The translations under genes were made by a program, and so were the position numbers. DNA of 35,130 nt from an uncultured Roseivirgaceae bacterium. GTDB lineage: Bacteria; Bacteroidota; Bacteroidia; Cytophagales; Cyclobacteriaceae. The stretch covers positions 3,300-38,429 of the forward strand of contig CAZXTW010000002.1 of the NCBI GenBank assembly GCA_964643525.1. The letters run 5' to 3'. The notes under the pieces were generated by a model. It saw only the letters and a program-made list of their open reading frames with translations, was not told the origin of the DNA and searched no databases. Below are positions 6,664 through 32,991 of the stretch, piece after piece; position 1 is the first letter of the stretch, and every line of letters starts with the position of its first letter.

Positions 6664-8223
6664 ATGCAAAACACTATTTATAGCAACTATTTTACTGAAG
6701 AGCATAATCTGTTTAGGCAAGGGCTGCGTGACTTTCTGGACAAAGAAGTGACACCCAATATTGACCAATGGGAGGCTGACGAGCGCATACCCAAAAACCT
6801 TTGGGCTAAATTTGGCAGCCTGGGTTACCTGGGCTTGAATTATCCTGAACAGTATGGCGGTGCCAATGCAGATTTTTTCTTTAGCGTTGTATTTCTTGAA
6901 GAAACTGCCCGGTGCTTTTCTGGCGGGTTTTCTATCACGCCCAGCGTGCAGCAATACATGGCCTCGCCATACCTGTATAAATACGGATCTGACTTCCTGA
7001 AAGAAAAATACCTGACAGGTGCCATTAGTGGTGAAAAGATATGCTCAATTGCCATATCTGAGCCTGGAGCAGGCTCTGACGCAGCCAACATCCAAACCAG
7101 GGCCATCCGCGATGGAGATCATTATGTTGTGAATGGTTCAAAAACATTCATAACCAATGGCTATTATGGTGATTTTTTAATTACTGTAGTAAAAACCAAC
7201 CCTGAGGCCGGTTCGGCCGGGGTGAGCCTGTTGGTAATTGACCGCAATGCAGAAGGCGTTAGTGCCAGAAAGCTTAAAAAGTTAGGGTGGCATGCCTCTG
7301 ACACGGCCGAACTCAATTTTGACGATGTAAAAGTACCCGTTGAAAACTTAATAGGTGAAGAGGGTAACGGCTTTTACTACTTAATGGGAGGTTTACAAAC
7401 CGAAAGACTAGCCGGGGCCATTAGCGCAGTTGCAGCTGCTGACCACGCCCTACAGTATGCCCTGCAGTATATGGCCGAGCGGCAAGCCTTTGGCAGGCCT
7501 ATTAATAAGTTTCAGGTACTGAGGCACAGGGTAGCTCAATTGGCGGCCGAGATTGAGTCAACACGTGCTTTTGTGTATCATTGCGCCAGGCTGCATAACG
7601 ACAATCAGTATGCGGTAAAAGAATGCTCAATGGCCAAGCTGCTGGCTACTGAGCTATCAGATAAAACCATGTATCAGTGCCTGCAGTTCTTTGGTGGATA
7701 TGGGTATATGGAAGAGTACAAAATAGCACGGATGTTTAGAGACAGCCGCGTTGGTACAATAGGCGGTGGCAGCTCGGAGATTATGCGAGAAATCATTGCC
7801 AAAATGGTCATTGATGATCAGAACTATCAACAAGCTGGCCCTAAAAAAGCCAGTAGGCATACAAATGGGCAACAACCAGAATTAACTGACGAAGTACCAT
7901 CAAAACCGATTAAATACAATAATCTCATGAGTTTAGAAGCAACCACTGAAGCCCTCAAAAAAAGGGCTGATGAAGCAGCCCCTTTAAACAACACCATAAA
8001 GTTTGTTATGGGTGAAGGGGTAATCATTATTGACGGAAACAATGGAAGCAACCAAGTAAGCAATGATGAGCTTGAAGCAGACTGTACCGTAAACCTTGAA
8101 AAAGCTGACTTAGATGCCATGCTAAGTGGTGAACTTGCCCCGATGAATGCATTCATGGCTGGTAAGTTAAAAGTTAGTGGTGACATGAGCGTTGCCATGA
8201 AACTACAAAGCATTGTGGGCTAG
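6664..8223 (+). CDS. Acyl-CoA dehydrogenase fused to a C-terminal SCP2 sterol/lipid-carrier domain
   Basis: The track ORF is 6637..8223. I prefer the ATG at 6664 (MQNTIYSNYF...), which aligns with the start of the upstream paralog and avoids a 23-nt overlap. The ACAD core has 'AISEPGAGSDAAN', 'FFGGYGYMEEY', 'IGGGSSEIM'. After a low-complexity linker, the last ~100 aa ('...IKFVMGEGVIIIDG...LDAMLSGELAPMNAFMAGKLKVSGDMSVAMKLQ') read as SCP2. Confidence 0.8.
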   Translation: MQNTIYSNYFTEEHNLFRQGLRDFLDKEVTPNIDQWEADERIPKNLWAKFGSLGYLGLNYPEQYGGANADFFFSVVFLEETARCFSGGFSITPSVQQYMASPYLYKYGSDFLKEKYLTGAISGEKICSIAISEPGAGSDAANIQTRAIRDGDHYVVNGSKTFITNGYYGDFLITVVKTNPEAGSAGVSLLVIDRNAEGVSARKLKKLGWHASDTAELNFDDVKVPVENLIGEEGNGFYYLMGGLQTERLAGAISAVAAADHALQYALQYMAERQAFGRPINKFQVLRHRVAQLAAEIESTRAFVYHCARLHNDNQYAVKECSMAKLLATELSDKTMYQCLQFFGGYGYMEEYKIARMFRDSRVGTIGGGSSEIMREIIAKMVIDDQNYQQAGPKKASRHTNGQQPELTDEVPSKPIKYNNLMSLEATTEALKKRADEAAPLNNTIKFVMGEGVIIIDGNNGSNQVSNDELEADCTVNLEKADLDAMLSGELAPMNAFMAGKLKVSGDMSVAMKLQSIVG

Positions 8224-8258
8224 ACTAAGGTAAATACCCCATTTGGCACTCAAAAAAA

Positions 8259-8285
8259 GCCACTGGAAACCCAGTGGCTTTTTTT
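8259..8285 (+). terminator. Rho-independent terminator of the acyl-CoA operon (A-tract upstream makes it potentially bidirectional)
   Basis: A perfect 8-bp stem GCCACTGG (8259-8266) / CCAGTGGC (8271-8278) with loop AAAC, followed by T7 and preceded by A7. Confidence 0.8.
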
Positions 8286-8949
8286 AATATCTAGCTATTG
8301 GCACTCATGCCCAAGATCACTTAGCCTAATAGTAAAGCAAAGCCTTACTTTTGAATACAAACCACCGAAATAACAGGTTTATAAATGCATAAAATCGAAG
8401 CATCAGAGCGTACCGCACTTGTTTAGATATAATTTATTCTATTTTTTTCTTGAGCCAATTTTTGTTCACTTCTCAGAATAAAAGCTCACCAGCCTATTTC
8501 ACCTTTATTTAAGATCTTATTTCATAGCATAAAAAATTGTCATATGTAATTATATTATTACATTGCGTAATATTAACATACACATGTTATTACTTATAAG
8601 TGACATCTTACTAAAGTAAAGCACTACACCATTCATTTATGAGGTAAGAATTAAGAGGAATAAAATTGAGGCTCTGCAAACAGAAACTGTAGTGTTTAGC
8701 CATTTGCATATCCTGTAGTTTTAGCACTTGCTCAACTCACCACAAAATATATGCATATAATTCAAACAATAATTGCAAACCTAAATAACATATTCATAAA
8801 TCAAATAACTAAACATTGCTCAATATTTAGCCGCTGGTATATATCCCATTAAACTTCAATAAAAGCCGTTTAAAGTCTATAACCATAACTAACCTAGTAT
8901 TATAAATTAATAATTCTCTATATCCATTTAAACGTAAACTTCAATTCTT
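8286..8949. other. ORF-free, strongly AT-rich intergenic spacer
   Basis: No track ORF lies on either strand. My own scan finds only ORFs of 33 aa or less. Hand counts give 19/60 G+C for 8401-8460 and 11/60 for 8521-8580. Confidence 0.7.
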
Positions 8950-9108
8950 ATGAAAAAGCAACGTGTATTTCCGACATTCAATGCACTAAGTGCAATTCAA
9001 CAAAGTAAACTACGCGGCGGATGCCCTGATTGTGATACAGGCCCAGAAGCGCCAAACCCGCCTAATGATCCACCTACTACTGGTACGGATGATCCACCTA
9101 ATCAGTAA
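8950..9108 (+). CDS. Small unannotated ORF (52 aa): putative double-glycine-leader peptide precursor
   Basis: My translation is MKKQRVFPTFNALSAIQQSKLRGG|CPDCDTGPEAPNPPNDPPTTGTDDPPNQ*. 'LSAIQQSKLRGG' fits the LSxxELxxIxGG double-glycine leader pattern. Local G+C (34/60 for 9001-9060) stands out from the AT-rich surroundings. It is below the 60-aa ORF-track cutoff. Confidence 0.55.
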   Translation: MKKQRVFPTFNALSAIQQSKLRGGCPDCDTGPEAPNPPNDPPTTGTDDPPNQ

Positions 9109-9210
9109 GATGTAAGCAAACCAATCAATATAGTGTTAGAATAATATTTTAATAACAGCAAGTCGGTATTATTGATATCTTTGTTAATGTAACATGATAG
9201 TTTACAGTAT

Positions 9211-10476
9211 ATGAAGAATCTTACACCTATTTACTTGCTGTTATTTTTTCTCGTTGCTTGTCAAAAACATCCATCAAGAAATATAAACCCTGCACAAGAT
9301 GTTTTAAACCTTCTAGAAGCATCTAAATCACAGCTTACCCAAACTGATTCAGCTCTTAATTTAATAATTAAGGCACAAGAAATAGCCCATAAGCATGGGC
9401 TAACTCAATATAGGGCTAGCATCCTTAACCAAAAAGGGCGTGTATATGTAGAAAAAAACCTATTGCTAGAGGCGCTTGAATGCCATTTATCAGTCATTAT
9501 GTCTACACAAAAAGCCAATGAGGTGGCCTATGCCAACCACCAATTAGGCGTATTGTATACAAGAATGAAACAATATGACAGGGCAATTAACCACTTGCAG
9601 GGTGCCTTGAAGTATTACACAAAAGCCAATAAAAATAACTGGCTGGTATTAAGCCACTTTCGGTTAGGTAAAGCTTATTTACTTAAGCAAGAATTCCCTC
9701 AAGCAGAAAACAGCTTTCAAGCTTCATTGCGGTATGCAGAAAAGTCTGGTTATGACCTTATGATTCAGTATAACTTAGATAGGCTGGCTGAAGTGTGTAG
9801 TACAACCGGCAGGTTTATTGAAGCAAAATCGTATATAAAAGCCATGCGAGAACGCTTTCAGTTAGAAAACCCTCCTGCATTGATAAGCTACCTTTTACTG
9901 TTGGGCAATACCGCAGAAGAGCTGGCACAACCAAAAGAAGCCGCACAATACTACGACCAGGCGGCCGCCGTTATTCGGCAACACCCTGATAACCATCTGT
10001 ATCTCTACGGCATGTATACTTATGGCAACTATCTGCAAAGGCACCAGAAAGATGGCATTACCATTTGGAAAGAAGCATTGAACAATTATCAGGTTGATGA
10101 ATCTAAATACACTGCTGAGCTAGTTGCTCTCTCACAAGCCTTGGGTAATTGGTATATGAATAGACAGCAGCTGCATGATGCAGCCCCATTCATTCAACTC
10201 TCCAATCGCCTACAGAGTGAACGAGTAGCCTTACTCTCTAATATGGAAACCCAATACAACCTGGCGCAGATAGAACAAGTGCAAAAGCAAGTAGCAGCGC
10301 AATATGCTCCATCACCTTCATTTTGGCAAAATTATGGTATGTATATAGTTGTGGCTATTTTAATACTATACGGTATAGTTTTATCAGTAGCCTACCGTAA
10401 CAGATATGTTAAGCTACAGACTTACAGAAAGTTGGTAATGCAGCTCATCAAACCTCATGTTGAAGAAGGTAGATAA
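9211..10476 (+). CDS. TPR-repeat lipoprotein/membrane protein with a single C-terminal TM helix (sensor-like, no output domain)
   Basis: It has a lipoprotein-type signal 'LLLFFLVAC' and multiple TPR-like helical repeats (e.g. 'YANHQLGVLYTRMKQYDRAINHLQGALKYY'). The C-terminal TM helix is 'YGMYIVVAILILYGIVLSVAY', followed by a 27-aa tail. A candidate Bacteroidetes -7 box, TATCTTTG, lies at 9176-9183. Confidence 0.7.
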   Translation: MKNLTPIYLLLFFLVACQKHPSRNINPAQDVLNLLEASKSQLTQTDSALNLIIKAQEIAHKHGLTQYRASILNQKGRVYVEKNLLLEALECHLSVIMSTQKANEVAYANHQLGVLYTRMKQYDRAINHLQGALKYYTKANKNNWLVLSHFRLGKAYLLKQEFPQAENSFQASLRYAEKSGYDLMIQYNLDRLAEVCSTTGRFIEAKSYIKAMRERFQLENPPALISYLLLLGNTAEELAQPKEAAQYYDQAAAVIRQHPDNHLYLYGMYTYGNYLQRHQKDGITIWKEALNNYQVDESKYTAELVALSQALGNWYMNRQQLHDAAPFIQLSNRLQSERVALLSNMETQYNLAQIEQVQKQVAAQYAPSPSFWQNYGMYIVVAILILYGIVLSVAYRNRYVKLQTYRKLVMQLIKPHVEEGR

Positions 10477-10481
10477 TTTAC

Positions 10482-11150
10482 CTATTCCTCATTAAATGCT
10501 TCAATACCATTTATGATTATAGGGCTTGGGTGTATACCTTTTGCTAGTTGAGCATCGTCTACTGGCGGGAGCATAGTAACTTGAAATGGAATTACACCAG
10601 CCCATACATTTAATTCGTAATCAGCTGCATCGTCAGATGGGTGCCCGGTGCGTTCTTTTGCTGAGGCATGTTCAATATCAATAGCCACTACCAGAGTAGC
10701 CTTCATTTCGGCCTCATTTGGCTGCCGTACCTCGTCCCACCTGCCTTGAAACACATTGTCACTAATTGCCCTTACAGCATTATACTTTTCCTGGCCCTCA
10801 TTAACAATGCGTGTTGCACCAAATACAGCTACCGAGCGGTAATTCATAGAATGGTGAAAAATAGACCGGGCCATAACCAAGCCGTCAGTATGTGTAACTG
10901 TTAAACTACCCTGGCCGGCCTCTACCAAGCTTGTAAGCATACGGTTTTTCAACGCACCGTGTAAATAAACAGTTTCTTCAATACGCCCATAAGCAGTAGG
11001 TATTATCACGGCCTGCCCCCGCCAAACATAGCCAACATGACAAAGAAAATGAGTGTCTAATATTGTAAAAACCTTTTGCTTATCATAACTACCTCGGTTT
11101 GGCGCGCGTTTAACCCGGTTTAAATCAGTTACATTAAATGACTGTTCCAT
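10482..11150 (-). CDS. Pyridoxamine 5'-phosphate oxidase-family (FMN-binding split-barrel) protein
   Basis: The track ORF is 10482..11180; I prefer the ATG at 11150 (MEQSFNVTDLNRVKRAPNRGSYD...). The N-terminal 'RxxxRGxYD' motif and overall size are typical of PNPOx-like flavin-binding proteins. It is divergent from a MocR regulator. Confidence 0.65.
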   Translation of the reverse strand: MEQSFNVTDLNRVKRAPNRGSYDKQKVFTILDTHFLCHVGYVWRGQAVIIPTAYGRIEETVYLHGALKNRMLTSLVEAGQGSLTVTHTDGLVMARSIFHHSMNYRSVAVFGATRIVNEGQEKYNAVRAISDNVFQGRWDEVRQPNEAEMKATLVVAIDIEHASAKERTGHPSDDAADYELNVWAGVIPFQVTMLPPVDDAQLAKGIHPSPIIINGIEAFNEE

Positions 11151-11261
11151 ATTTGAAATCTTTAATGCAAATAAATACATTTACAGGACTACCTAAAGCA
11201 GCCAGTTTTATTAAACTCAGTAGTCCGGTTACGACTTGGCTAACCCTCAGAACCACACAAA

Positions 11262-12749
11262 ATGTTACCCTTTGGCACCTTAATTCAAATTGACCGGGCC
11301 AACAAACAGCCCTTGTTTATGCAAATTGTAAATGCTGTAATTAGGCAGGTACAAACGGGCAACCTACCACCAGGTACGCAATTGCCGGGTACCCGCCAAT
11401 TGGCTGTGTTGTTACAGGTGCATCGTAAAACTGTGGTAACTGCTTATGATGAGTTATATGCTCAGGGGTGGCTAGAATGCCAACCCTCAAAAGGTACGTA
11501 TGTATCAACACAGTTACCTACTGTAGATAAAAAGGTGCTAAAGCCAGCCAAACAGTATGGCTCAATAAACCGAGCCTCTTTTCTTATAAATGACTTACCT
11601 GAGCTTGATCAGCCTCTTTATAAAGATGCCAACCAGCTACAAATTGATGATGGTATTCCAGATGTACGCCTGGCTCCTACTGAAGAATTGGCCCGCACCT
11701 ACCGATCAGTGCTTAAAACTGCCTCATCAAAACAATTGCTAAACTATGGCGAGCTTCACGGTCATCCAGTACTACGCCGGGAATTGGCCACCTACTTAAA
11801 TAGCACTAGGGGCTTAAGCATTACTGATGAGAACATAATGATTACTAGAGGCAGCCAAATGGGTATATTTCTTTGTGCTCAATTATTACTCAAAAATGGG
11901 CAGGCCGTTGCCGTAGGCAACACAAATTACATTGCTACAGATATTACGTTTCAACATGCAGGCGCTAGCCTGTTGCGAATTGAAGTAGATGAACATGGCC
12001 TTAATACTAAAGCGCTAGAACAAGTATGCGCAAAAAATAGACCAAAGGCTGTTTATGTAACGCCCCACCACCATCACCCTACAACCGTAACCTTAAGCGC
12101 CGAACGCAGACTTCATTTGCTTGAACTGGCGCGAAAGTATGGGTTTGCAATTATAGAAGATGACTATGACTTTGACTTCCATTACGGCAGAGGCCCCATT
12201 TTACCTCTAGCAAGTGCCGACCAGCAAGGGCATGTATTATACATTGGTTCTTTATGCAAACTAATTGCACCAGCTTTGCGCGTTGGTTATCTGGTGGCCC
12301 CAAAGAATGTAATTCACAAAGCAGCTATGTTAAGGCGAATTATTGACAGACAGGGCGACCACATTCTCGAATTAGCTTTGGCAAGAATGTTTAAAGAAGA
12401 CGCCATTCAACACCATACCAGAAAGGTTTTAAAAGTGTATAAAGAACGTCGTGACCTGTTTGTTCAATTAATTGACAATATTGGTAGCCAAAAAATACAG
12501 TTTAATATACCAAAGGGTGGCATGGCCCTTTGGGCACAATTTAACCAGCGCTACCCATTACCAGATGTGGCTAAAAGGGCCGCGCAAAAAGGGGTAATTA
12601 TGGCCGATGGAACGAGGTATGACTCGATGGGTAAAGGTTTGAATGCGTTGCGAATGGGCTTTGCTTCAATCAATAGGCAAGAAGCCACGCAAATTACTCA
12701 GGTGCTAAAGAGTGTACTAGACGAGATGGCGGGTAAGAAGACTATATAA
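11262..12749 (+). CDS. MocR/PdxR-type regulator (GntR wHTH fused to fold-type I aminotransferase-like domain)
   Basis: The N-terminal GntR HTH reads 'LPGTRQLAVLLQVHRKTVVTAYDELYAQGWL'. The C-terminal aminotransferase-like domain carries a candidate PLP lysine in 'IGSLCKLIAPALRVGY'. Confidence 0.85.
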   Translation: MLPFGTLIQIDRANKQPLFMQIVNAVIRQVQTGNLPPGTQLPGTRQLAVLLQVHRKTVVTAYDELYAQGWLECQPSKGTYVSTQLPTVDKKVLKPAKQYGSINRASFLINDLPELDQPLYKDANQLQIDDGIPDVRLAPTEELARTYRSVLKTASSKQLLNYGELHGHPVLRRELATYLNSTRGLSITDENIMITRGSQMGIFLCAQLLLKNGQAVAVGNTNYIATDITFQHAGASLLRIEVDEHGLNTKALEQVCAKNRPKAVYVTPHHHHPTTVTLSAERRLHLLELARKYGFAIIEDDYDFDFHYGRGPILPLASADQQGHVLYIGSLCKLIAPALRVGYLVAPKNVIHKAAMLRRIIDRQGDHILELALARMFKEDAIQHHTRKVLKVYKERRDLFVQLIDNIGSQKIQFNIPKGGMALWAQFNQRYPLPDVAKRAAQKGVIMADGTRYDSMGKGLNALRMGFASINRQEATQITQVLKSVLDEMAGKKTI

Positions 12750-12761
12750 ATGAATCAACTA

Positions 12762-13604
12762 TTAATAAAATGCCAGCTCTTTTTTACTTCGCTTTAACAA
12801 TTTGTATAGCGGCTCTCTTACCTTTGTCTCTAATTGGCGCAATTCTAAGCGTACCTGCTCTAATAAAATAGTATAAGGAGCTGGTACCTTTCCTTCACTA
12901 AAGTTGCTGCTCACAAAATTTTCTATAAACTGAAGCAATACCACCCTGTCATGCCAATTGCCCAACTTTCCTTCAAGCTTTTTAATTCGCTTATTAGTGT
13001 ATTGATCAGGCATATCTATTCTGCAAAACTTTAAAAAATCAACTATGTAATGAATCTCTTTAAGCTCCGTTCTTACTTCGTGCAACTGGGCAGGGTACTC
13101 TATACCACTAAGTAACTTTTTAACCCGCTGTAGTTTTTTGAGTATCAGTTTTTGGCCCTTATGTGCAAGCTCCGTTTTAGTGAATAACGTGTTTTCTTTA
13201 ACCTTCTTGAGCAAGCCTTTTAATGAGGCTTCACGGTACTGAACCATACCATCTACAAACGTTTCACGAGTTCGTAGTTCTCGCTCTTTCAGATGCTTTT
13301 GATAGGCAGCTATGTTTAGCGACAAATCTTTCGCGTACCGCCGGGCAAGCTGCTGTTGAACCTGCAAATCTCTAAGCACTGCTGCCGACTTGAACAAACG
13401 GCGAAACACTAAAAAATCATTTTGAAAGTTAAACCTTTCAGGGCGCAATGCACTGATAAATTGTAGGTGCGCCTTTAAGCGTTTTATACCCAAACGAACT
13501 TCATGAATGGCTTCAACATCAAACCTTGTGGCTGCGGTTTGCAGGTTGTCATCAATCATATTTTTATACCCCTGAAAAACCTTATGTGTGCTTTTTTTGG
13601 CCAT
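12762..13604 (-). CDS. CHAD domain-containing protein
   Basis: The track ORF is 12762..13622 (TTG start); I prefer the ATG at 13604. The protein is all-helical with CHAD-type conserved His/Arg motifs ('IHEVRLGIKRLKAHLQF', 'LHEVRTELKEIHY', 'GNWHD'). Confidence 0.7.
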   Translation of the reverse strand: MAKKSTHKVFQGYKNMIDDNLQTAATRFDVEAIHEVRLGIKRLKAHLQFISALRPERFNFQNDFLVFRRLFKSAAVLRDLQVQQQLARRYAKDLSLNIAAYQKHLKERELRTRETFVDGMVQYREASLKGLLKKVKENTLFTKTELAHKGQKLILKKLQRVKKLLSGIEYPAQLHEVRTELKEIHYIVDFLKFCRIDMPDQYTNKRIKKLEGKLGNWHDRVVLLQFIENFVSSNFSEGKVPAPYTILLEQVRLELRQLETKVREPLYKLLKRSKKELAFY

Positions 13605-13878
13605 TGGTATAGGCAGAAACAAGAAACTTAACAGTTACTTAACAATTTGATTACAATTATAGCAATGTAATAGGCAAGTAGCAAACATGAAATTAACTTG
13701 AAGACAGAACTAATCAACATCTATAACTATGAAAAATAGCAATTTAACTATCATATTACCTTCTCTAATTGCAGCAAAAACAATAGCAGTTTCTTTATGA
13801 GTAAGTTAGCTAAACAAGCCATTAAATTAAATTCTAAAGAATAACAGCCCGTGACTTTTTTACTTACCAGATAACAAC

Positions 13879-13904
13879 AAAAAAAGCCGGAATAAATTTC
13901 CAGC
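13879..13904 (-). terminator. Weak rho-independent terminator downstream of the T9SS-cargo gene
   Basis: On the minus strand, GCTGGA-AATTTA-TCCGGC forms a 6-bp stem with one G-U pair, followed by T7 (A7 at 13879-13885 on the plus strand). Confidence 0.4.
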
Positions 13905-13951
13905 CCTTTTGAAATAGTACGAATACACCTAAATATGATTTTTTCTTTCTC

Positions 13952-14881
13952 TTACTCTTCTTTGATTACCCTAATGGTTTCTCGTCCGGCAGGGGTCATT
14001 ATTTCATAAAAGTAGGTACCAGCCTGCAATCCATCTAAATCTACTTCAATTTCATACTGGCCAGGCTTCTCTACTTTATTGACAATTTCCTTTACATGGT
14101 TGCCTTGCCCATCAATTAAAACAATGGTAACTATACCTTTTTCTGTTAACCCATAGGTTAATTTGTTTCCATTGGTGTAAGTGGGGTTGGGGTATACTTT
14201 GGCTTGGCCGCCCGCCAAATCATCATCAGGAAACGGCAAAGGTTTATTAGGGTCAAGCAACACAAAGCCTACAGGTTCAATATTACCCAGCATAAACTTT
14301 AAGCCTCTCGGTCCCCTGGCACCAAACCGCCCGTTGTGCCCATGGTTCATCCTTTCACTATGTTTAGAACGTTCTGGTGCATCTTCAGGGCGGTGCTCTT
14401 CCATAATCCCTCGAATATCTTCACGCCACTGCTCCTTCAGGTCAGCCATGCCATCTAACAAGGCATATACAGTGGTTTCATGCGCATCAACAATTTCCCA
14501 GGCCTGTTGCTTTAACTGCCGCACTTTTTTCATATTTTCTCTGCGTTGTTGCTTTTCCTCTTCGGTGGGCTCACGTCGTTGCTCAGAAGGCCCGCTTTCA
14601 AACCTGGTTCTGTTAGCCCTGAACTCATCATGCATTACTTTTAGTTCGCCCCTAATGGCCTCCAACTGGGCCTGTTCATCTGGGCTTAGTTCTGAATCTA
14701 GCTTGGCACGCTCAGCACTTACCATTGGCCACACATTTGTTTCAATGTAGGCACGTACAGCTTTTCTAGCCTCCGGGTTTTTATGGCTGTTTTTTGGGCC
14801 GCCAGGTTGTGCAATTGCTGCAGCCCCTGATATTACTGCTACTGCAAACAATGCAATCATTGAAATCCTCTTTTTCATCAT
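13952..14881 (-). CDS. Secreted protein with T9SS C-terminal sorting domain; charged helical N-terminal passenger
   Basis: It has a signal peptide 'MIALFAVAVISGAAAIAQ'. The C-terminal ~80 aa ('KVYPNPTYTNGNKLTYGL...GTYFYEIMTPAGRETIRVI') match the Por/T9SS CTD pattern. The passenger is rich in E/R/K/Q helices. Confidence 0.75.
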   Translation of the reverse strand: MMKKRISMIALFAVAVISGAAAIAQPGGPKNSHKNPEARKAVRAYIETNVWPMVSAERAKLDSELSPDEQAQLEAIRGELKVMHDEFRANRTRFESGPSEQRREPTEEEKQQRRENMKKVRQLKQQAWEIVDAHETTVYALLDGMADLKEQWREDIRGIMEEHRPEDAPERSKHSERMNHGHNGRFGARGPRGLKFMLGNIEPVGFVLLDPNKPLPFPDDDLAGGQAKVYPNPTYTNGNKLTYGLTEKGIVTIVLIDGQGNHVKEIVNKVEKPGQYEIEVDLDGLQAGTYFYEIMTPAGRETIRVIKEE

Positions 14882-15182
14882 TACCGTGTTTTTACTTTCT
14901 CTGAAATCTTTTGTTTTCTTGCCAACTGATACGCCAAATATGGCCGTTCAGATGCCTCTACAAAAATCAATTCAACCAACAACAGGTTTACTTAAACAAA
15001 AGACTAAATACCCTACTACCAAAACCAATAGTTACAGTACTAACCTGTTGGTAGATGTCCATAATACGTTGGTAGGCAGGTATGACCCTCTGGTTGAAAT
15101 TTTTGATGCAACTCGTTAAAAAGCCTACTTTTAACGTTCACTATAGGCAGTACCCGAAACTCACAAACAACATCTATCAATT

Positions 15183-16304
15183 GTGTCTAAACCATTTCCT
15201 ATATCATTCAAAACTATATTGCCCGCCAGGTCGGTATCACATTTAATATTCTGGGCGGGTTATTACCTGGTTATAGTTTTTGTACTGGCCAATAGGCTTC
15301 AAACCGCACTGGCCCTATGGTATGGCTTTTTACTCATCTCACCTCAAATCATTATAGCCTACATCAACATGCAATGGCTGGTACCTCAGTACTTCATGCA
15401 AAAGCGGTTTCTTCATTTTGCGGTATCAGTAATAGTCTTATTTACACTATTATACTTTACTTATGAGGCTATTGGCCTTAACAGGCCCTTTCTATACAGC
15501 AGAGCTGACTTCAGAGAGTTTAGAGAATTAAAAGAGTTTGGGGGGGGCAACTTTGGCCCCAGGCGTGGCATTCCTTTTGGCGGCAACTTTCCCAGGCCTC
15601 CCCATTTCATCAAATCGGCTGTAAACCTCATGCTTACCCTCGGTGTGTTTCTACTTTCAACAGCTTATAAAGCCTCGCTTATAGCAATGAACAACGAGAA
15701 AGAAGCACAACGGCTAAAAAGTGAAGGCCTAGAGTCAGAACTACGTTTTTTAAAGTCGCAAATAAACCCGCACTTCCTGTTTAATGCACTCAATAATGTG
15801 TATAGCCTGTCTCTCATCCAATCTGAAAAAACACCAGATACCATCCTAAAGCTGTCTGAAATGCTCAGGTACATTTTGTATGACTGCAATCAGGAAAAAG
15901 TACCCCTCAACAAAGAACTAGCCTTTATTCGTAATTACGTTGACTTGATGAAACTCAAAGACGACCAGATACAAAACATTAAACTAACCTTACCCATAGT
16001 TTCAAGTAGCGATATGATTGAACCTATGCTATTTGTACCTTTTGTTGAAAATGCCTTTAAACACAGCAAAATTGAAGACCTTGTTAACGGCTGGATCAAT
16101 ATTGAACTCACCCTTTCAAACCGGCAACTCATTTTTACAATTAAAAACAGTGTGCCAGAACTCAGCTATACAAAAGACAGCGTTGGTGGCATTGGACTGG
16201 AAAATGTGCGCCGCCGGTTGCAGCTACTCTACCCGCAAAGGCATGAGCTATTCATTGACAAAACAGAACAGCAGTTTACAGCACAACTAAGCATACTACT
16301 ATGA
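15183..16304 (+). CDS. LytS/YehU-family sensor histidine kinase
   Basis: It has a GTG start and N-terminal TM helices. The His_kinase (PF06580-type) motif is 'LKSQINPHFLFNALNNVYSL' and the ATPase region is 'VPFVENAFKHS...GIGLENVRRRL'. Its stop overlaps the response-regulator start (ATGA at 16301-16304). Confidence 0.85.
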   Translation: MSKPFPISFKTILPARSVSHLIFWAGYYLVIVFVLANRLQTALALWYGFLLISPQIIIAYINMQWLVPQYFMQKRFLHFAVSVIVLFTLLYFTYEAIGLNRPFLYSRADFREFRELKEFGGGNFGPRRGIPFGGNFPRPPHFIKSAVNLMLTLGVFLLSTAYKASLIAMNNEKEAQRLKSEGLESELRFLKSQINPHFLFNALNNVYSLSLIQSEKTPDTILKLSEMLRYILYDCNQEKVPLNKELAFIRNYVDLMKLKDDQIQNIKLTLPIVSSSDMIEPMLFVPFVENAFKHSKIEDLVNGWINIELTLSNRQLIFTIKNSVPELSYTKDSVGGIGLENVRRRLQLLYPQRHELFIDKTEQQFTAQLSILL

Positions 16305-17041
16305 GTAAAATAAACTGCCTTATTGTTGACGACGAGCAGCTGGCCCGTACACTGCTAGAAAACTTTGTTGCTAAAGTACCAGTATTAGAGGTAGCAGGAC
16401 TTTGTAAAAACCCGTTAGAAGCACTAGGTATCTTGCAGCAGCAACCTGTTGAATTGATTTACCTTGATATACAAATGCCAGAACTCACGGGTACTGAATT
16501 TTTGAAAACATTACCTCAGACACCCAAAGTCATTTTTACTACTGCCTATCCTGACTATGCCCTTGAAGGGTATACACTCAATGCCATTGACTACCTTTTG
16601 AAGCCTTTCTCTTTCGAGCGATTCATTCAGGCTACCAATAAAGCAATTGGCCTGGTTCAGCTTGAACGGGCAGCCAGTTTAAATTCAAATGCAGTCCCGC
16701 AGGCAAATACAGTTAACAAGCAATCCAACCCCTACATCACCCTAAAAGCCGACCACAAAATGCATAAGGTTTGGCTAAAAGACATACTCTACATAGAAGG
16801 CATGAAAGAGTATGTGGCATTCCACCTACCCAACCAGCGAATTATAGTGTTAGAATCGCTCAAAAACCTGGAGGCTTCGTTACCAAATGGCCAGTTCATG
16901 CGCATTCATAAATCATTTATTGTGAATACGCTAAAAATTGAAATGTTAGAAGGCAACCTGGTTTATCTCGCAGGTAAGCAATTACCCATTGGTAAAAGCT
17001 ATCGTGAGGTAGTTCTAAAAAGTATTTTCGGAAAAGAATAA
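16301..17041 (+). CDS. LytTR-family response regulator
   Basis: The REC domain reads 'CLIVDDEQLAR...LIYLDIQMPELTG...LLKPF'. The C-terminal LytTR domain reads 'ILYIEGMKEYVAFH...MRIHKSFIVN'. Confidence 0.9.
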   Translation: MSKINCLIVDDEQLARTLLENFVAKVPVLEVAGLCKNPLEALGILQQQPVELIYLDIQMPELTGTEFLKTLPQTPKVIFTTAYPDYALEGYTLNAIDYLLKPFSFERFIQATNKAIGLVQLERAASLNSNAVPQANTVNKQSNPYITLKADHKMHKVWLKDILYIEGMKEYVAFHLPNQRIIVLESLKNLEASLPNGQFMRIHKSFIVNTLKIEMLEGNLVYLAGKQLPIGKSYREVVLKSIFGKE

Positions 17042-17253
17042 GGCCCCATAGGTACCTGACCTGCTTAGAACAAATCGCATTTTTAATCTATCTTTGAGTT
17101 TATCATTTTATTTATAACAAATTGTTAACTATTTGTAAGGCCTTTCTCTCAATAAAAACTTATCTATCAGCTTATTAAAAAAATAATCAATAGCAAGAGA
17201 TATCAAATTGAGGAGTGCCAACAGTGATTTAACAAAGCAGAAAATTAAAACCA

Positions 17254-17544
17254 ATGGTCGTCAGGATATTTAAAGCCACCGTAAAACCTGAACTTAAAAA
17301 AGATTTTGAAAACTTTTTTCGCTATGAGGCCATTCCATATATGCAGGTGCAAGAAGGAATAGTAAATGTAGTAACCGGAAAGCCAATTTCTCAGAATGAC
17401 AACGACTTTGTAATGGTTACTACCTGGGAAAACATAGACGCTGTAAGGAAATTTATGGATAACGAATGGAACAAAGATAAGCTGGTACGAGACGAAATGA
17501 ATATGTTAGAAAATACCCGAATTGAGCACTTTGAAGTGATCTAA
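17254..17544 (+). CDS. Small ABM/Dabb-fold (antibiotic biosynthesis monooxygenase-like) protein
   Basis: It is 96 aa with a ferredoxin-like beta-alpha-beta pattern ('VRIFKATVKPE...FVMVTTWENIDAVRKF'). The assignment rests on size and pattern only. Confidence 0.5.
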   Translation: MVVRIFKATVKPELKKDFENFFRYEAIPYMQVQEGIVNVVTGKPISQNDNDFVMVTTWENIDAVRKFMDNEWNKDKLVRDEMNMLENTRIEHFEVI

Positions 17545-18463: not shown

Positions 18464-20653
18464 ATGCAACACTTTGCTCAAAATATATACACTGTGCTAC
18501 CCTGCAATGTAAAAATTTGCCTTTTAACTGTTCTCTCATTGCTCACTGCCAGTACGCTGTACGCCCAGCTAACAATTAGTGTTATTAAAGTCCCAACAAA
18601 CACGCCTGCTAATGCTCAAGTTTACATGGCATGTAACCTGAACAACTGGCACCCCGCCCACCCCGATTATTTGCTTCAACAACAACCTGATGGTTCTTAT
18701 GCCCTTACCCTTCCATTACAATCAGATACCCTACGGTATAAATTTACTCGCGGCAGCTGGCCTTCTGTAGAGGGCAGTAAAATTGGTAAGCTCATTGCAG
18801 ACAGACTGGTGGTTGGCCCAATTGATGTACCCACCAAGGTTACTGCACGTATTCAGTCTTGGGAAGACCTGGCTACTACCAGCTACTATGACATATTTAT
18901 TGACCGGTTGCCCATCAATACACCCGCAAACACCCAACTCTTCCTTACTGGTAACTTTAACGATTGGAACCCACGAGACCTGCTTTATCAATTTCAACTA
19001 AGAGATGATGGCAATTGGCACCTCAGACTACCTTTTATGCTAGATACGTTAAGCTTCAAAATTACTAGAGGCAGTTGGGAAACTGTTGAAGGAAACGAGA
19101 GAGGCGAGATGATTACCAACCGAGAGTTTATTTCAAGAGACTATACCAGCATGACCATTCACACCAATGTACTTGGTTGGGAAGACCTGGCCCCACCCCG
19201 TTATTTTAACTTTTTGGTCTCTAAAGTGCCAGACAACACGCCCGCCGATGCATCCCTATATTTATGTGGCACATTTAACCAATGGAAGTACGGCGACGAA
19301 TCATACCGCCTTGAAAAAAGTAGTGATGGCAGCTATTACATCAACATATCATCAGAGGCAGATACCGTTTATTACCTGTTTAACAGAGGCAGTGCCCTTA
19401 TGGCAGAGTGTAACAGCAATGGTACCCCAAAGCAATATCGTAGAGCAATATACCAAAACCGCCCCAGAGAAATACCTCGTGCCGGCGAGGAGATAGTATT
19501 CATCAAGGCCTGGCTTGATTTACCTACCGCGTTCAAACAGCTTTATACCACCACATTGGCTGTACCCTTTACTATTGGGGTGTTTCTACTGGCGCTATTG
19601 GTAAATCAGTTTAAACAAAAGTACGCTAGCCGCATGGCGTTCCTGGCACTATTGTGTATTAGCTTCACCTTAGGGGCTCAACTGTTAATCATGCAACCAT
19701 GGGCCTTTGCCCATCATACCAAACTTGCCTTATTGCCCTTTCTAGGTTTACTAACTATACCCCCAACCCTCTACCACTACTTGTTGGCATTATTGGCCAA
19801 ACGCCACAAGGCACAGTTTAAAGACTGGCTGCATACTGCCCCCTTTGCGGTTTTATTAGTGCTGCTGCTGCCATTACTAATCAGCAGCAGCAACACAATC
19901 AATGAGTTAATCAGGCATGGTCAACTCAATTGGGTGTTTGCATTAGGGTACGGCATTGCTTTTACCATAGCCCTGGTTTACTGCCTGGCTAGTGTTAAGC
20001 TTTGGAACCGCACCCGCTCAGAAAACCTGCAAAGCCAATTGGCACAACCAGTAATAAAGTATGGTAAAATACTCTTGTTTTACACAACCATTACACTTAT
20101 CATCTGGGCTTCTGGCCTGCTTTTACCTGCAGCCAGCCATCTTATACGTACTGATACAACAGCCGCAGCAAACATTACTGGATATATAGTTTGGCTACTT
20201 TTAGGGGGGTATGTAGGTATAATATTTACTGCCATGACAGGCGCAAAAAGTGACTACTTTAACTTTGCCAGCAACCATACGCAAAAAACCGAACACTTTT
20301 TTCTGACCAGACAAATTCAAGAGGTAATGGCAAAAGATAAACCCTACCTTAACCCAAAGCTTACACTAAACCACCTGGCACAAATCTGCCACGTTAACCC
20401 ACAACAAATGTCGCGCGCTTTGAATGAAGGCTTTGGCAAAAACTTTTATGATTACATTAATCATCATCGTATTGCTGAATTCAAACAATTAGTAAGCCTG
20501 ACTGAAAACAAAGAAAAAACAGTACTTGAAATGGCCTACAAGGTAGGGTTCAGTTCCAAAACCACCTTTAACCGGGCATTTAAAAAAAGTACAGGGCAAA
20601 CACCAAGCGAGTACTTAAAAACTGGCTTACCAACCTCAACTGCTACTAATTAA
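18464..20653 (+). CDS. Membrane-bound AraC-family regulator: signal peptide, 3 tandem CBM20/48-like repeats, ~7 TM helices, C-terminal AraC HTH
   Basis: Three modules of about 115 aa share 'NTPA..(V/L)(Y/F)..G.FN.W....Y.......DG.......TL.(Y/F)K.TRGSW..VEG....WEDLA'. Seven hydrophobic segments follow. The C-terminus is 'LNHLAQICHVNPQQMSRALN...VGFSSKTTFNRAFKKSTGQTPSEY'. Confidence 0.8.
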   Translation: MQHFAQNIYTVLPCNVKICLLTVLSLLTASTLYAQLTISVIKVPTNTPANAQVYMACNLNNWHPAHPDYLLQQQPDGSYALTLPLQSDTLRYKFTRGSWPSVEGSKIGKLIADRLVVGPIDVPTKVTARIQSWEDLATTSYYDIFIDRLPINTPANTQLFLTGNFNDWNPRDLLYQFQLRDDGNWHLRLPFMLDTLSFKITRGSWETVEGNERGEMITNREFISRDYTSMTIHTNVLGWEDLAPPRYFNFLVSKVPDNTPADASLYLCGTFNQWKYGDESYRLEKSSDGSYYINISSEADTVYYLFNRGSALMAECNSNGTPKQYRRAIYQNRPREIPRAGEEIVFIKAWLDLPTAFKQLYTTTLAVPFTIGVFLLALLVNQFKQKYASRMAFLALLCISFTLGAQLLIMQPWAFAHHTKLALLPFLGLLTIPPTLYHYLLALLAKRHKAQFKDWLHTAPFAVLLVLLLPLLISSSNTINELIRHGQLNWVFALGYGIAFTIALVYCLASVKLWNRTRSENLQSQLAQPVIKYGKILLFYTTITLIIWASGLLLPAASHLIRTDTTAAANITGYIVWLLLGGYVGIIFTAMTGAKSDYFNFASNHTQKTEHFFLTRQIQEVMAKDKPYLNPKLTLNHLAQICHVNPQQMSRALNEGFGKNFYDYINHHRIAEFKQLVSLTENKEKTVLEMAYKVGFSSKTTFNRAFKKSTGQTPSEYLKTGLPTSTATN

Positions 20654-29933: not shown

Positions 29934-29996
29934 AACTACTACGCTTTGGTCATTGATGGCACCATTACCACCATGTTCAAGTATACAACGCAAACT

Positions 29997-30015
29997 TACT
30001 AAACAGTGTTCAGTA
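29997..30015. promoter_or_regulatory. Putative TetR operator 2 (tetR autoregulatory site)
   Basis: TACTAAACA-G-TGTTCAGTA is a 9-1-9 near-palindrome with one arm mismatch. It lies 64 nt upstream of the preferred tetR start and shares its core with operator 1. Confidence 0.6.
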
Positions 30016-30303
30016 AAAAATCATCATTCTTTAAAAAATTAATGTTAACCCTAATCAAAGCTCTAAACCCCCAACCATAAATACATTTCACTATATACTA
30101 ATTATCACATTATTAAAATACATAATAGCATATACCAGCTGGTGTAAGCCAGAGAATCTTTAGCAGTACCAAAACCCCAATACGGAACAACAAAGTGCCT
30201 ATTTATCCATTAAAACAAGCTTTAAGGGCCCAATAAGGCATCTTCACATCGTCTACCGGTAACCAAGACAGTTCCCGGCCCTGCCGCAAAGCCGGCAGGT
30301 ACT

Positions 30304-30319
30304 GATGATGGCCATCATC
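30304..30319. promoter_or_regulatory. Perfect 16-bp palindrome upstream of the small lipoprotein gene
   Basis: GATGATGGCCATCATC is self-complementary. It is preceded by a second hairpin, CTGCCG-CAAAGC-CGGCAG (30281-30298), and followed by CTTTTGG. It lies 40 nt upstream of the ATG at 30359. Confidence 0.5.
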
Positions 30320-30358
30320 CTTTTGGAAGCAATTCAAAATCAGAAAAAAGGATGAAAA

Positions 30359-30565: not shown

Positions 30566-30624
30566 CGCAACACCCAACAAATCAGGCACTAACCTGTAAC
30601 AGTTTATTACTAATCCAAACAAAC

Positions 30625-30780: not shown

Positions 30781-32991
30781 ATGAAAATATTAGCTACTAC
30801 CTACCTACTGTTTTGGGGCTTATTACTCAATGCTCAAGCCACTGACTATTTTGATGACATTCAAGCCAACTTTCGCCAAAGTGCCGCACATAGAAAGGCA
30901 GGCAACTGGCAGGCAGCTCTGCCCCCCATGTTGCAGGCAGCAACCATAGCGCACCAGAACAACGACAACAAAAGGCTAGTGCAGTGCCTCAATGAACTGG
31001 GTAATATTTACAACTACCTTGGCCAATACCACCTGGCCATACAAGTGCTAGACAGTTCGCACCAGCTGTTACAAATAAGCCCTAACTCAAAATACTATTT
31101 AACTGCCACCATCAAACTTGCCGAAGCCCATGCCGCCTTAAGCCATAAAGCAGCTACAAAAGCCAACCTGGCTGAACTATTCAAAATCACTAAAGCCAAT
31201 CAAGACAGCCTAAAGCTGGCACATGGCTACACCGTGGCGGGCGTACTCTACACCAACCTCAACCAGTTTGATAGCAGTGCCATGTATTATGACTCTGCCA
31301 TCACCCTTTACCAGGCCCTGGGCAATGCCAGCCAGTTGGCCAACACACAACACAACCTGGGCATAGTGCTAAGCAAACAAAGCAATTACCAGCAAGCCCT
31401 TACCGCTTACCTTAATGCTTTACGGTATTTTGAACAACACCAAATTGAAAGCCAGGCAGCCAATGTTTACAACAGCATAGCCACCCTGTTTGAAAAACAA
31501 AAAGACAGTACCTCTGCCATCAACTACCTAAAAGCTGGCCTGCAAAAAGCCAAACCTGGCAGTAAACTTGAAGGGCTCCTCAATTACAGCCTGGGCAATA
31601 CGCTTTTGGGCCAGGCACAGTATGACTCTGCCATAGTTCACTACTACAATGCCCTGAACACATGGAAGGCCCTGAACGACACCGTACGCATCGTCAACAC
31701 CTACCTGAGCTTGGCGCAGGCCACCTTGAAGACTGCGCCTGCCTCAGCCACAGCTCCCACTAACTTAATAGACAGCGTGGCCCCTTACGTAATTGGCATT
31801 ACTGATTCAACTCTTTTAGCAGAATACCAAACCACTTTGGGCGAGCATTTACTTGCAAAGCAAAAACCAGCCCAAGCCCTTAAAGTACTCATTGCTGCCG
31901 CTGCTACCTTTCAAGATCGTGGTCTGCCCGAACGACTTTTCAGAGTTTGGTGGTTACAACGTAGCGCCTATAGGCAGCTCAATGACTTTGAAAATTATTC
32001 TAGACTTACTTCCCTCCATGACTCAATAAATATTCTATTCAACAACCAACAAAAACAAGCCAGCCTGCAAGAGTTAGCTGTAAAGTACGAAACCGAGAAG
32101 CGTGAACAGCAAATTGAATTTCTTGAAACCGTACAACAAGAAACAGAAACCCGACTTCTTTTCCAGAATCGATTTCTCTGGACCATTTCAGCGCTAGCTG
32201 TAACACTCTTTGTCTTGGCAGCCTTCATCTACCGCAGCCGCACCAAACTGGCCAAAAAGAACATCGCCATACAAAAACTTAATGAAGAGCAAAAAGAACT
32301 GAATGAAGAACTGCATGCGGCCAACGACCAGCTAGAGCTGCGTGCCAATGAACTCATTAAAATGAACCGCACCATTGAAGAGCTAAACAGCGAGCTGAAC
32401 CACCGCACCCTGAACCACCTCGAACTTATACAAAGCTACTATGAGCTGGGCACCTACCAGGCCGAAAAGCCCGAACTACGCGAAGCCATGAAACACGGCA
32501 TGCTCAAGCTTGAAACCATGGTTGAGCTGTACCAGATGTTGCACACCCAAATAGCAGAAAACCCCAACCTGTCATTACAGCAATACATGGGTAAGCTACT
32601 ACAAAAGCTGCTACAGCTGGCTGCCCTGCCACCAGAGGTACTCACTGTCAATGGGCACGACCTGGTGCTGCCCAATAAAACCATGCTTTATATGGGCATA
32701 ATCGTGACAGAACTCGTTACCAACAGCATCAAATACGGGCACCAGCAGGGGCAACAGCTCAACATCAACATACACTGGGGCACAGAAAATAAAGGAGAGT
32801 TTGCTTTGACAGTGCAAGACAATGGCCCTGGCCTGGAACAGCCTCCTGAATCACTCAAAGACAACTCATTTGGCCTAAAAATGGTATACCTACTTACACA
32901 ACAACTCAATGGCACCCTGCAATACCACTACCGGCAGGGCGCCAATTGGCAACTACAACTGGCCAACACATTTGCTTTACAAACCAGCTAA
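30781..32991 (+). CDS. Sensor histidine kinase with extracytoplasmic TPR array (signal peptide, TPRs, 1 TM, coiled coil, HisKA_2-type H-box, HATPase)
   Basis: Signal peptide: 'LLFWGLLLNAQA'. It has many TPR-like repeats, e.g. 'CLNELGNIYNYLGQYHLAIQVLD'. TM helix: 'FLWTISALAVTLFVLAAFIY'. H-box: 'LNHRTLNHLELIQSY'. ATPase: 'IIVTELVTNSIKYG', 'VQDNGPGL'. Confidence 0.85.
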   Translation: MKILATTYLLFWGLLLNAQATDYFDDIQANFRQSAAHRKAGNWQAALPPMLQAATIAHQNNDNKRLVQCLNELGNIYNYLGQYHLAIQVLDSSHQLLQISPNSKYYLTATIKLAEAHAALSHKAATKANLAELFKITKANQDSLKLAHGYTVAGVLYTNLNQFDSSAMYYDSAITLYQALGNASQLANTQHNLGIVLSKQSNYQQALTAYLNALRYFEQHQIESQAANVYNSIATLFEKQKDSTSAINYLKAGLQKAKPGSKLEGLLNYSLGNTLLGQAQYDSAIVHYYNALNTWKALNDTVRIVNTYLSLAQATLKTAPASATAPTNLIDSVAPYVIGITDSTLLAEYQTTLGEHLLAKQKPAQALKVLIAAAATFQDRGLPERLFRVWWLQRSAYRQLNDFENYSRLTSLHDSINILFNNQQKQASLQELAVKYETEKREQQIEFLETVQQETETRLLFQNRFLWTISALAVTLFVLAAFIYRSRTKLAKKNIAIQKLNEEQKELNEELHAANDQLELRANELIKMNRTIEELNSELNHRTLNHLELIQSYYELGTYQAEKPELREAMKHGMLKLETMVELYQMLHTQIAENPNLSLQQYMGKLLQKLLQLAALPPEVLTVNGHDLVLPNKTMLYMGIIVTELVTNSIKYGHQQGQQLNINIHWGTENKGEFALTVQDNGPGLEQPPESLKDNSFGLKMVYLLTQQLNGTLQYHYRQGANWQLQLANTFALQTS

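Follow-up and report, generated by a model that had tools for sequence, protein, structure and literature searches.

A conserved gene pair in uncultured Bacteroidota encodes a small proline-rich peptide and a predicted kinase-less, extracytoplasmic TPR lipoprotein, probably a peptide and its binder

We analysed a 35,130-nucleotide (nt) stretch of DNA from an uncultured Roseivirgaceae bacterium (Bacteroidota; assembly GCA_964643525.1, contig CAZXTW010000002.1, positions 3,300 to 38,429), hereafter the window, in which a small open reading frame (ORF) is followed by a gene for a protein built of tetratricopeptide repeats (TPRs). An earlier note, made from the letters alone, had proposed that the two could form a pair of peptide and extracytoplasmic TPR protein (ligand and receptor, decoy receptor or peptide chaperone); all of its ORF coordinates, as well as the 102-nt gap from the small ORF to the TPR gene, proved correct. 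The pair is composed of the following parts:

8950..9108, forward strand: small peptide ORF of 52 amino acids (aa), MKKQRVFPTFNALSAIQQSKLRGG followed by CPDCDTGPEAPNPPNDPPTTGTDDPPNQ
8950..9021, forward strand: leader part of the small ORF, residues 1-24, MKKQRVFPTFNALSAIQQSKLRGG, double-glycine-like in appearance
9022..9108, forward strand: 28-aa core of the small peptide, CPDCDTGPEAPNPPNDPPTTGTDDPPNQ, with the stop codon
9211..10476, forward strand: TPR-protein ORF, 421 aa
9211..9261, forward strand: predicted lipoprotein signal peptide, residues 1-17, N-terminus MKNLTPIYLLLFFLVAC, with the lipobox LVAC (residues 14-17, Cys17) after a hydrophobic stretch
9289..10161, forward strand: predicted extracytoplasmic TPR superhelix, residues 27-317, 16 helices, about 8 repeats
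10171..10302, forward strand: Q/E-rich juxtamembrane segment, residues 321-364, modelled by AlphaFold2 as one long helix
10333..10395, forward strand: single transmembrane (TM) helix, about residues 375-395, helical in the model and present in all family members
10396..10476, forward strand: short basic cytoplasmic tail of 26 aa, RNRYVKLQTYRKLVMQLIKPHVEEGR, net charge +4, plus the stop codon

Relatives of the TPR protein were sought in a word-indexed collection of 5.8 billion proteins and by searching 1.84 billion cluster representatives exhaustively with HMMER. The former returned one 99% identical copy from the same species and one relative with 62% identity (P0002, on contig L001), to which the latter added four full-length relatives with 22–26% identity to the window protein (P0004, P0008, P0029 and P0040); the remaining HMMER matches were generic TPR stretches in long proteins. 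For three of the four distant relatives, all except P0008, the surrounding DNA could be read, and in each the TPR gene is immediately preceded, on the same strand, by a small ORF of the same design. The peptide gene therefore accompanies the TPR gene in 5/5 lineages with readable DNA, always upstream, on the same strand and across a gap of 40–102 nt, although the TPR proteins share only 22–62% identity, and the association extends down to the most distant copies, at 22–24%. The pairing thereby passes the chief check that the earlier note had set for it, co-occurrence in other genomes. The 102-nt gap itself is identical in length in the window and in L001. In the window the two ORFs share a reading frame, 261 nt apart with three in-frame stop codons between them, which is probably a coincidence. 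Because the flanking genes are entirely different between the window and the lineages L006 and L011 while the pair persists, the conserved unit is just the peptide gene, the TPR gene and their control region. Both genes are real, conserved and linked, and since all five known lineages have the peptide gene just ahead of the TPR gene, the two products probably work as a peptide-and-binder pair.

It is conceivable that the two genes are merely co-inherited neighbours in a small mobile cassette whose products do not interact directly. The extreme rarity of the family and the mobile or variable contexts in which it occurs would agree with this. Order, strand and close spacing are, however, retained in 5/5 lineages at about 22% TPR identity between differing flanks, and selection on a joint function would be expected to maintain linkage across such divergence; we consider simple co-inheritance quite unlikely and continue with the peptide and its presumed binder.

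To assess constraint on the small ORF, its codons were compared between the window and L001, the contig of the 62% identical TPR relative P0002. Over the whole ORF the proportion of synonymous differences (pS) was 0.62 against 0.245 for nonsynonymous ones (pN), and within core residues 25–40 the values were 0.68 and 0.095, the changes being mostly synonymous and in third positions. With pS well above pN, the small ORF is under purifying selection. The L001 peptide is a 51-aa ORF, MKKQRVLPALNALSKMHQMKLTGGCPNCDTGPEAPNPPPDMPEDDEDPPTL, 102 nt upstream of its TPR gene. In L006 the corresponding ORF, MKKTKRHTSPGLAWLPQWQLMQLTGGNTGGSGSDPHDDTDNPPPPDK, ends 42 nt before the TPR gene and had been missed by the original annotators, while L009 and L012, two finds of a single lineage, carry MKKKLRLDPLRVQSMRLPLPQTWSLKGGTGQGGNTEGDASDEPPSDPPPPDK with a 53-nt gap, and L011 carries MKKNKLRLEPFRVLSMRLPVPQGILARGGDQNTTSNSEPYTDDEPPPIKPPETHS with a 40-nt gap. 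A word-index protein search with the window peptide recovered the same-species copy only, a negative that carries no weight as the real L001 homologue was missed as well, and the same peptide had no match in Pfam.

The five precursors, 47–55 aa in length, share a common design. All begin with MKK plus further basic residues and have GG at residues 23–29 (5/5); counted back from the GG, position -12 is Leu in 5/5 and position -4 is hydrophobic in 4/5, while position -7 is hydrophobic in L006 only and three of the leaders contain prolines. The part that follows GG is 21–28 residues long, has a net charge of -4 to -8 with 5–9 prolines and no hydrophobic stretch (net -6 and nine prolines in the window), and ends in every lineage with PP and then 2–5 residues; a CxxC motif is limited to the window clade. 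The description of the gene as a GG-leader ORF in the earlier note has the GG, the Leu at -12 and the mostly hydrophobic -4 position in its favour and the -7 position and the prolines against it, and no library of hidden Markov models (HMMs) recognises a double-glycine leader in it. A lipoprotein signal in the small peptide was considered and rejected: there is no hydrophobic core, and a Cys follows GG in the window clade only.

The architecture that had been read from the 421-aa protein, with a lipoprotein-type signal, a TPR array, one TM helix and a short tail, was borne out; the tail measures 26 aa, and LVAC fits the lipobox pattern [LVI][ASTVI][GAS]C. TPR_12 matched at 2e-17 (63.6 bits against a cut-off of 30.1), TPR_1, TPR_2, TPR_7 and TPR_8 likewise scored above their Pfam cut-offs, and neither Pfam nor NCBIfam found anything other than TPR families in it, with no effector domain. 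The lipobox Cys is invariant in the five aligned full-length family members and is also present in P0008 (in L011 the true start of the TPR gene restores the lipobox), so the protein is a predicted lipoprotein; hydropathy peaks at 2.5 at residue 376. The TPR domain is predicted to lie outside the cytoplasm, given a lipoprotein signal at one end of the protein and, at the other, a single TM helix followed by a positive tail. Surface exposure of the lipoprotein was rejected, as the C-terminal TM helix with its positive tail fixes the location in the inner membrane.

The AlphaFold2 model of the TPR protein (mean predicted local distance difference test score, pLDDT, 82.6) consists of 16 paired helices over residues 27–317, the long helix 321–364 and the TM helix. 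Foldseek matched it to TPR structures at E of about 1e-8; the top PDB entries were the TPR domain of LGN/Pins, next consensus TPR superhelices, and next Rap receptors with and without Phr pheromones. The best match, LGN/Pins, is an 8-repeat superhelix with a TM-score of 0.50–0.55 by query length and 0.59–0.68 by target length, and the matched LGN structures (LGN-NuMA, LGN-Inscuteable and LGN-Frmpd4) hold extended peptides in the inner groove, which accommodates about 20–30 residues, the length of the core peptides described here. LGN/Pins is a eukaryotic cytoplasmic scaffold with 16–18% identity to our protein, and the likeness is one of fold class only. We take the PDB matches as a whole to assign the model to a fold class, that of TPR superhelices which bind extended peptides, rather than to indicate homology.

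We next consider whether the TPR gene could be the decayed or truncated remnant of a kinase gene. This was rejected. All six family representatives are 421–472 aa long and have one layout in common, in which a lipobox Cys is followed by about 8 TPRs, then by a long helix, a single TM helix and a tail of 26–65 residues, and since every member has the same build, the protein represents a family and not a decayed kinase. Furthermore, a convergent Pyridox_ox_2 gene ends at 10482, 5 nt past the TPR stop codon, leaving no room for a lost kinase domain. HisKA and HATPase_c domains are absent after the TM helix in all family members, as the earlier note had seen for the window copy, and the pair withstands the suspicion of a pseudogene, its architecture being common to all members. 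Constraint is, moreover, strongest on the tail, which at 83% identity is the best-conserved segment when the window is compared with L001, against 62% for the whole protein; within the ectodomain the repeats at residues 211–270 are conserved best (77%). As the most conserved segment, the tail may have a role in binding a partner.

The same note had likened the protein to the sensor half of the TPR histidine kinase encoded at 30781..32991 of the window. That kinase has the architecture and juxtamembrane text attributed to it, namely a signal peptide, a TPR array, a juxtamembrane segment, a TM helix and HisKA_2 plus HATPase domains, with a LytTR response regulator gene after it, and the order of the parts is indeed analogous; specific homology beyond generic TPR columns was not found. 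BLASTP aligned the two proteins with 25% identity over 167 TPR residues (E = 5e-5), and hhalign aligned family columns 42–261 with kinase residues 39–299 at a probability of 96.6% over TPR columns, recovering neither the juxtamembrane segment nor the TM helix, so that the claimed juxtamembrane similarity is not upheld. In a profile search with the family, the next named matches were Bacteroidota TPR kinases, TPR-LuxR and TPR-AraC proteins, and in the exhaustive HMMER ranking generic multi-TPR proteins come immediately below the family itself. The protein resembles the kinase at 30781 in architecture only. A 787-nt intergenic region (29994-30780) precedes the TPR kinase/LytTR pair, and a regex scan of the window for further GG-leader-type small ORFs, this region included, found none.

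Conservation of the tail also bears on a different arrangement, in which the small acidic protein is not exported and binds the basic tail within the cytoplasm, the ectodomain senses some other periplasmic cue, and the small protein is the output that is released or captured. The tails carry +2 to +8 in the five paired lineages and are the best-conserved segment, the cores carry -4 to -8, the peptide has neither a Sec nor a Tat signal nor a linked exporter, and the problem of its entry into the periplasm would disappear. Set against this, the MKK...GG N-terminus resembles export leaders, the tail sequences are not conserved across distant lineages, a disordered acidic 50-aa peptide has no evident effector function, and the charge pairing is based on five pairs only. 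Weighing both sides, we regard this arrangement as improbable.

Where linkage, protein-level constraint, topology signals and TPR fold class are observed, we infer export with cleavage after GG, peptide–TPR binding and a signalling output, and tentatively favour a self-contained two-gene cassette in which an exported peptide is bound by the periplasmic TPR groove and the bound state is relayed to the tail, a mechanism that we consider possible. The N-terminal half of the 47–55 aa precursor (MKK...L-x-GG) would serve as a leader of the double-glycine type that is removed on export, and cleavage after GG would release an acidic, proline-rich and probably extended peptide of 21–28 aa. The TPR protein would be held in the inner membrane at both ends, lipid-anchored at its N-terminus and by the TM helix at its C-terminus, with the superhelix of about 8 TPRs in the periplasm between them. 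The groove on the concave side of the superhelix would receive the peptide in the way in which LGN/Pins and Rap proteins hold extended peptides. Occupancy of the groove could be passed on by the long juxtamembrane helix and the TM helix to the short tail, conserved and basic, in the cytoplasm, which may contact an unlinked partner.

Several observations weigh against this mechanism. No gene for a peptidase-containing ABC exporter (PCAT, with a C39 peptidase) was found in the 35 kb of the window or, for L006 and L011, in the 8 kb around the pair, although one may lie elsewhere in the genome. A diderm PCAT working with outer-membrane partners would bypass the periplasm, which leaves the entry of a peptide of about 2.8 kDa into that compartment unexplained. 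Prolines in the leaders are unusual for helical GG leaders, and a comparison of the five peptides with NCBIfam up to E 10 gave nothing relevant, in a test that must be called insensitive because the canonical-looking GG precursor found in L011 (described below) was unmatched too. The TPR fold matches are generic. The ectodomain has a charge of +5 in the window and L001 and of -11 to -14 in the others, and charge complementarity between ectodomain and acidic peptide holds in the window clade only. Finally, neither a kinase nor a regulator has a conserved place beside the pair.

Besides the two genes, the module contains non-coding DNA that is conserved between the window and L001:

8523..8572, forward strand: upstream non-coding block of about 48 nt, near-identical in L001 (about 195-245) between unalignable flanks
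8537-8564: sigma-70-like match TTGTCA-N16-TACATT within the upstream block
8545-8562: perfect palindrome TGTAAT-TATATT-ATTACA within the upstream block, about 400 nt before the peptide gene (L001 211-228)
8912..8929, forward strand: 18-nt block AATTCTCTATATCCATTT, ending 20 nt before the peptide start codon, identical in L001 where the surroundings have diverged
9152..9210, forward strand: conserved stretch directly before the TPR gene, with 3 mismatches to L001 over about 60 nt
9176-9183, forward strand: Bacteroidota-type -7 box TATCTTTG
9188-9206: imperfect palindrome TGTAAC-atgatag-TTTACA between the -7 box and the TPR start codon (L001 850-868)

The upstream block is a candidate operator or promoter and likely marks the left edge of the module. 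The 18-nt block differs from the TAnnTTTG box and could be a promoter or regulatory site serving the peptide gene. The stretch before the TPR gene, in which the candidate -7 box was found exactly where it had been placed before, probably comprises an internal promoter, an operator and a short 5' untranslated region; unlike this stretch, the synonymous sites of the adjacent TPR gene are saturated (pS 0.82, window vs L001). The pattern TGTAA-N7-10-TTACA occurs three times in the window against an expectation of 0.32, two of the three lie in the module, and both module palindromes are kept in the 62% relative, so these may be a shared operator for some regulator. Cumulatively, the three non-coding blocks, with conservation far in excess of the background, suggest that the window clade has a shared operator as well as an internal promoter from which the TPR gene is transcribed. 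In the L006, L009 and L011 lineages the gaps of 40–53 nt contain no -7-type box, and because of this the peptide and TPR genes are probably co-transcribed in these other three lineages. A different block of about 30 nt, in which AAAACAA comes after a small hairpin, GCTTTCGCYGAAARGC, is present about 20–30 nt before the peptide start codon in two distant lineages (L012 about 656-690, L011 about 7637-7670) and absent from the window clade.

The position of the small ORF raises the question of whether it acts in cis, as an upstream ORF (uORF) in which ribosomes pause at polyproline (NPPN, DPPN, PPPPD) before the stop codon and thereby couple TPR expression to the activity of elongation factor P (EF-P) or to proline supply, like the mgtL and mgtP leaders of Salmonella. 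Every copy has XPPX or PPPP within 2–12 residues of its stop codon, 40–102 nt before the TPR start, no exporter is linked to the pair, and EF-P-dependent leaders with proline codons are known (PMC6460261, PMC5299641). A stalling leader would have no need, however, of the protein-level conservation of MKK...L-x-GG and of the mid-core CPxCDTGPEAPNPP. No significant fold was predicted for the intergenic RNA (z = 0.16 and -1.23), a search of the window against Rfam gave no match, and transcription from the conserved TAnnTTTG box between the genes of the window clade would exclude the uORF from at least part of the TPR message. A cis-acting uORF seems to us very unlikely, and we return to the exported peptide that is bound by the TPR protein.

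In the window the pair is set between a metabolic operon and unrelated genes, and no modifying enzyme (radical SAM, YcaO, LanB/C/M, ATP-grasp etc.) flanks it there. The L006 neighbourhood contains an integrase, a secreted phage-tail-collar-like (tail-fibre-like) protein and a 1591-aa polymorphic toxin ending in a WHH/colicin-DNase domain; the tail-collar-like protein, the toxin and two small ORFs, which could be immunity genes, occupy 10416-17309, about 1 kb downstream of the pair. The L011 neighbourhood contains cas1, cas2 and cas4 and a RimK-like ATP-grasp gene with its own GG-leader precursor. Upstream of the pair, L006 (5600-7467) and L011 (5572-7445) share four small syntenic genes in the strand order -, +, +, - with weak matches to helix-turn-helix (HTH) or phage-repressor-like proteins, near the integrase in L006 and near cas1/cas2/cas4 in L011. 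Both settings look like mobile or conflict islands. With such a setting in two distant lineages, peptide-regulated antagonism would fit.

The separate precursor in L011 (9601-9789), MNKLQRLSDSLFDELPQHSASTLKGG then ALTRYALCTDCAEHGSHTDYGYHEDPEKDPDSGTVL, has a canonical-looking GG leader and is located about 300 nt downstream of the TPR gene and directly before the ATP-grasp gene (9826-10779), where annotators had called a different, overlapping 44-aa ORF. This precursor and the ATP-grasp gene may be a graspetide-like pair of the class of peptides made by the ribosome and modified after translation (RiPPs). The ATP-grasp gene, which has this separate precursor, is absent from the other lineages.

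These neighbourhoods bear on a further alternative, that the pair has a function other than signalling: the peptide would be a product for secretion, for instance one of a bacteriocin-like, RiPP-like, adhesive or matrix kind, and the TPR lipoprotein its periplasmic chaperone, docking or retention factor, or a self-immunity protein, with the lipoprotein LanI proteins, which bind their own lantibiotic, as a parallel. The gene order of peptide followed by membrane protein, with a spacing of 40–53 nt in three lineages, resembles that of bacteriocin–immunity operons. The conflict-island settings of L006, with its WHH/colicin-DNase toxin, and of L011, with its RiPP-like ATP-grasp pair, point in the same direction, as does the TPR protein in having no output domain and no linked kinase, and uncharacterised TPR genes have been noted beside GG-motif precursors in Bacteroidales RiPP clusters (PMC10352776). 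On the other side, the acidic, proline-rich and non-amphipathic core is unlike membrane-active bacteriocins or the cationic proline-rich antimicrobial peptides, no modifying enzyme is conserved with the pair, and the tail, its most conserved segment, would be needless in a purely periplasmic binder. We consider this alternative unlikely and keep to the view that binding of the peptide is relayed across the membrane.

Considered among known systems, the cassette would work most like a peptide/TPR pair of the RRNPP type, yet it is neither a member of that family nor a TPR histidine kinase nor a RiPP cluster. RRNPP systems of Firmicutes and phages (Rap/Phr, NprR, PlcR/PapR, PrgX, Rgg and AimR/AimP) likewise have a gene for a short secreted peptide adjoining a TPR gene of about 350–450 aa, and Rap proteins are significant structural matches of our ectodomain model (RapH 3q15, Phi3T Rap 8rst, pLS20 Rap 6t46). 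Membership, however, fails on topology and on the absence of an HTH, response-regulator-binding or phosphatase module, because the receptor here is extracytoplasmic and without an effector domain. RRNPP receptors are cytoplasmic, sense re-imported peptides and carry an HTH or response-regulator-binding domain, whereas the window TPR domain is predicted to sit outside, between lipobox and TM helix, and the protein has no such domain. Their propeptides use Sec-type or PptAB export, in contrast to the candidate GG-type leader of the window peptide, and the window pair belongs to another phylum with no sequence relationship beyond generic TPRs.

The TM TPR sensors of Bacteroidota (P. gingivalis FimS, TPR-LuxR, TPR-AraC and the window kinase) have the same order of signal peptide, periplasmic TPR, helix and single TM helix, but have a HisKA/HATPase or HTH output where the present family has only a 26–65 aa tail. 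The window kinase differs further in having a signal of the signal peptidase I type and no adjacent peptide gene, compared with the lipoprotein-type signal and adjacent peptide gene of the TPR protein. With the GG-leader substrates of PCATs (class II bacteriocins and pheromones, bacteroidetocins, and the GG-motif RiPPs of Bacteroidales) the peptides share a short precursor, GG at 23–29 and a hydrophobic residue at -12 and, in 4/5, at -4 (at -7 in L006 only), and an MKK start is typical of Bacteroidota GG peptides (PMC10352776, PMC6671954). Unlike those systems, the pair has no nearby PCAT and no HMM match, its leaders contain prolines, and its core is acidic, proline-rich and non-amphipathic.

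Kinase-less co-sensors such as ExoR of the ExoR-ExoS/ChvI system, YycH/YycI with WalK and MzrA with EnvZ are extracytoplasmic, have no catalytic output and act through a separate kinase, and ExoR is itself a Sel1/TPR-like periplasmic protein. We know of no dedicated adjacent peptide gene in the ExoR, YycH/YycI or MzrA systems. Where these co-sensors have partner kinases, the window pair has none conserved nearby.

Peptide-based cell–cell signalling is well established in Firmicutes, and to our knowledge the ligands of the abundant periplasmic TPR sensors of Bacteroidota are mostly unknown; no periplasmic TPR peptide receptor from this phylum was described in the literature that we searched. 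The small, conserved and enzyme-free pair is a directly testable ligand–receptor candidate, requiring one synthetic peptide and one soluble ectodomain. Should binding prove true, it would provide the first peptide ligand for an extracytoplasmic TPR module of the Bacteroidota type and a model for sensing by the kinase-linked versions.

General importance is limited by rarity, as 15 billion proteins contain only about five clusters of the family (at 50% identity), each of them from an uncultured lineage known from metagenomes, and genetic work would for that reason need a heterologous host or a new isolate. Pattern-based scans of 185,579 species-representative genomes found no family member at the sensitivity of those scans, and a scan of the IMG/VR viral collection also found none; a distant-clade scan of the genome collection gave only L010, which was discarded as an unrelated Firmicutes NB-ARC/TPR protein. 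A scan of JGI metagenomes yielded no new lineage, re-finding the L009 lineage (as L012) together with a generic TPR fragment. Marine-biofilm metagenomes are the source of at least three of the five lineages, namely the copies of the window species, L006 and L011 (BioSample SAMN08714533, PMC6355793).

Keeping in mind this distribution, we allow ourselves one wider conjecture, which as a whole we hold to be doubtful: the pair could be an inside-out Gram-negative counterpart of RRNPP systems, in which a periplasmic, lipid-anchored TPR receptor without a catalytic domain would sense a double-glycine-leader peptide and signal via its TM helix and conserved tail to a partner that is not linked to the pair, with the cassette moving among marine-biofilm Bacteroidota on conflict or mobile islands and controlling antagonism loci there.

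The rest of the window is Bacteroidota-like, with a type IX secretion system C-terminal sorting domain, LytS/LytTR pairs, an operon for an efflux system of the resistance-nodulation-division family and an acyl-CoA metabolism operon. At 18464-20653 it encodes a 729-aa protein in which Pfam sees only a C-terminal AraC-type HTH, the N-terminal approximately 630 aa having no family assignment and no similarity to the TPR protein. Just past the acyl-CoA dehydrogenase/SCP2 gene, a strong hairpin with symmetric A/T runs, AAAAAAAGCCACTGGAAACCCAGTGGCTTTTTTT, occupies 8252-8285 and looks like a bidirectional intrinsic terminator at the end of the metabolic operon; beyond it extends a 726-nt AT-rich intergenic region with a GC content of 0.28–0.32.

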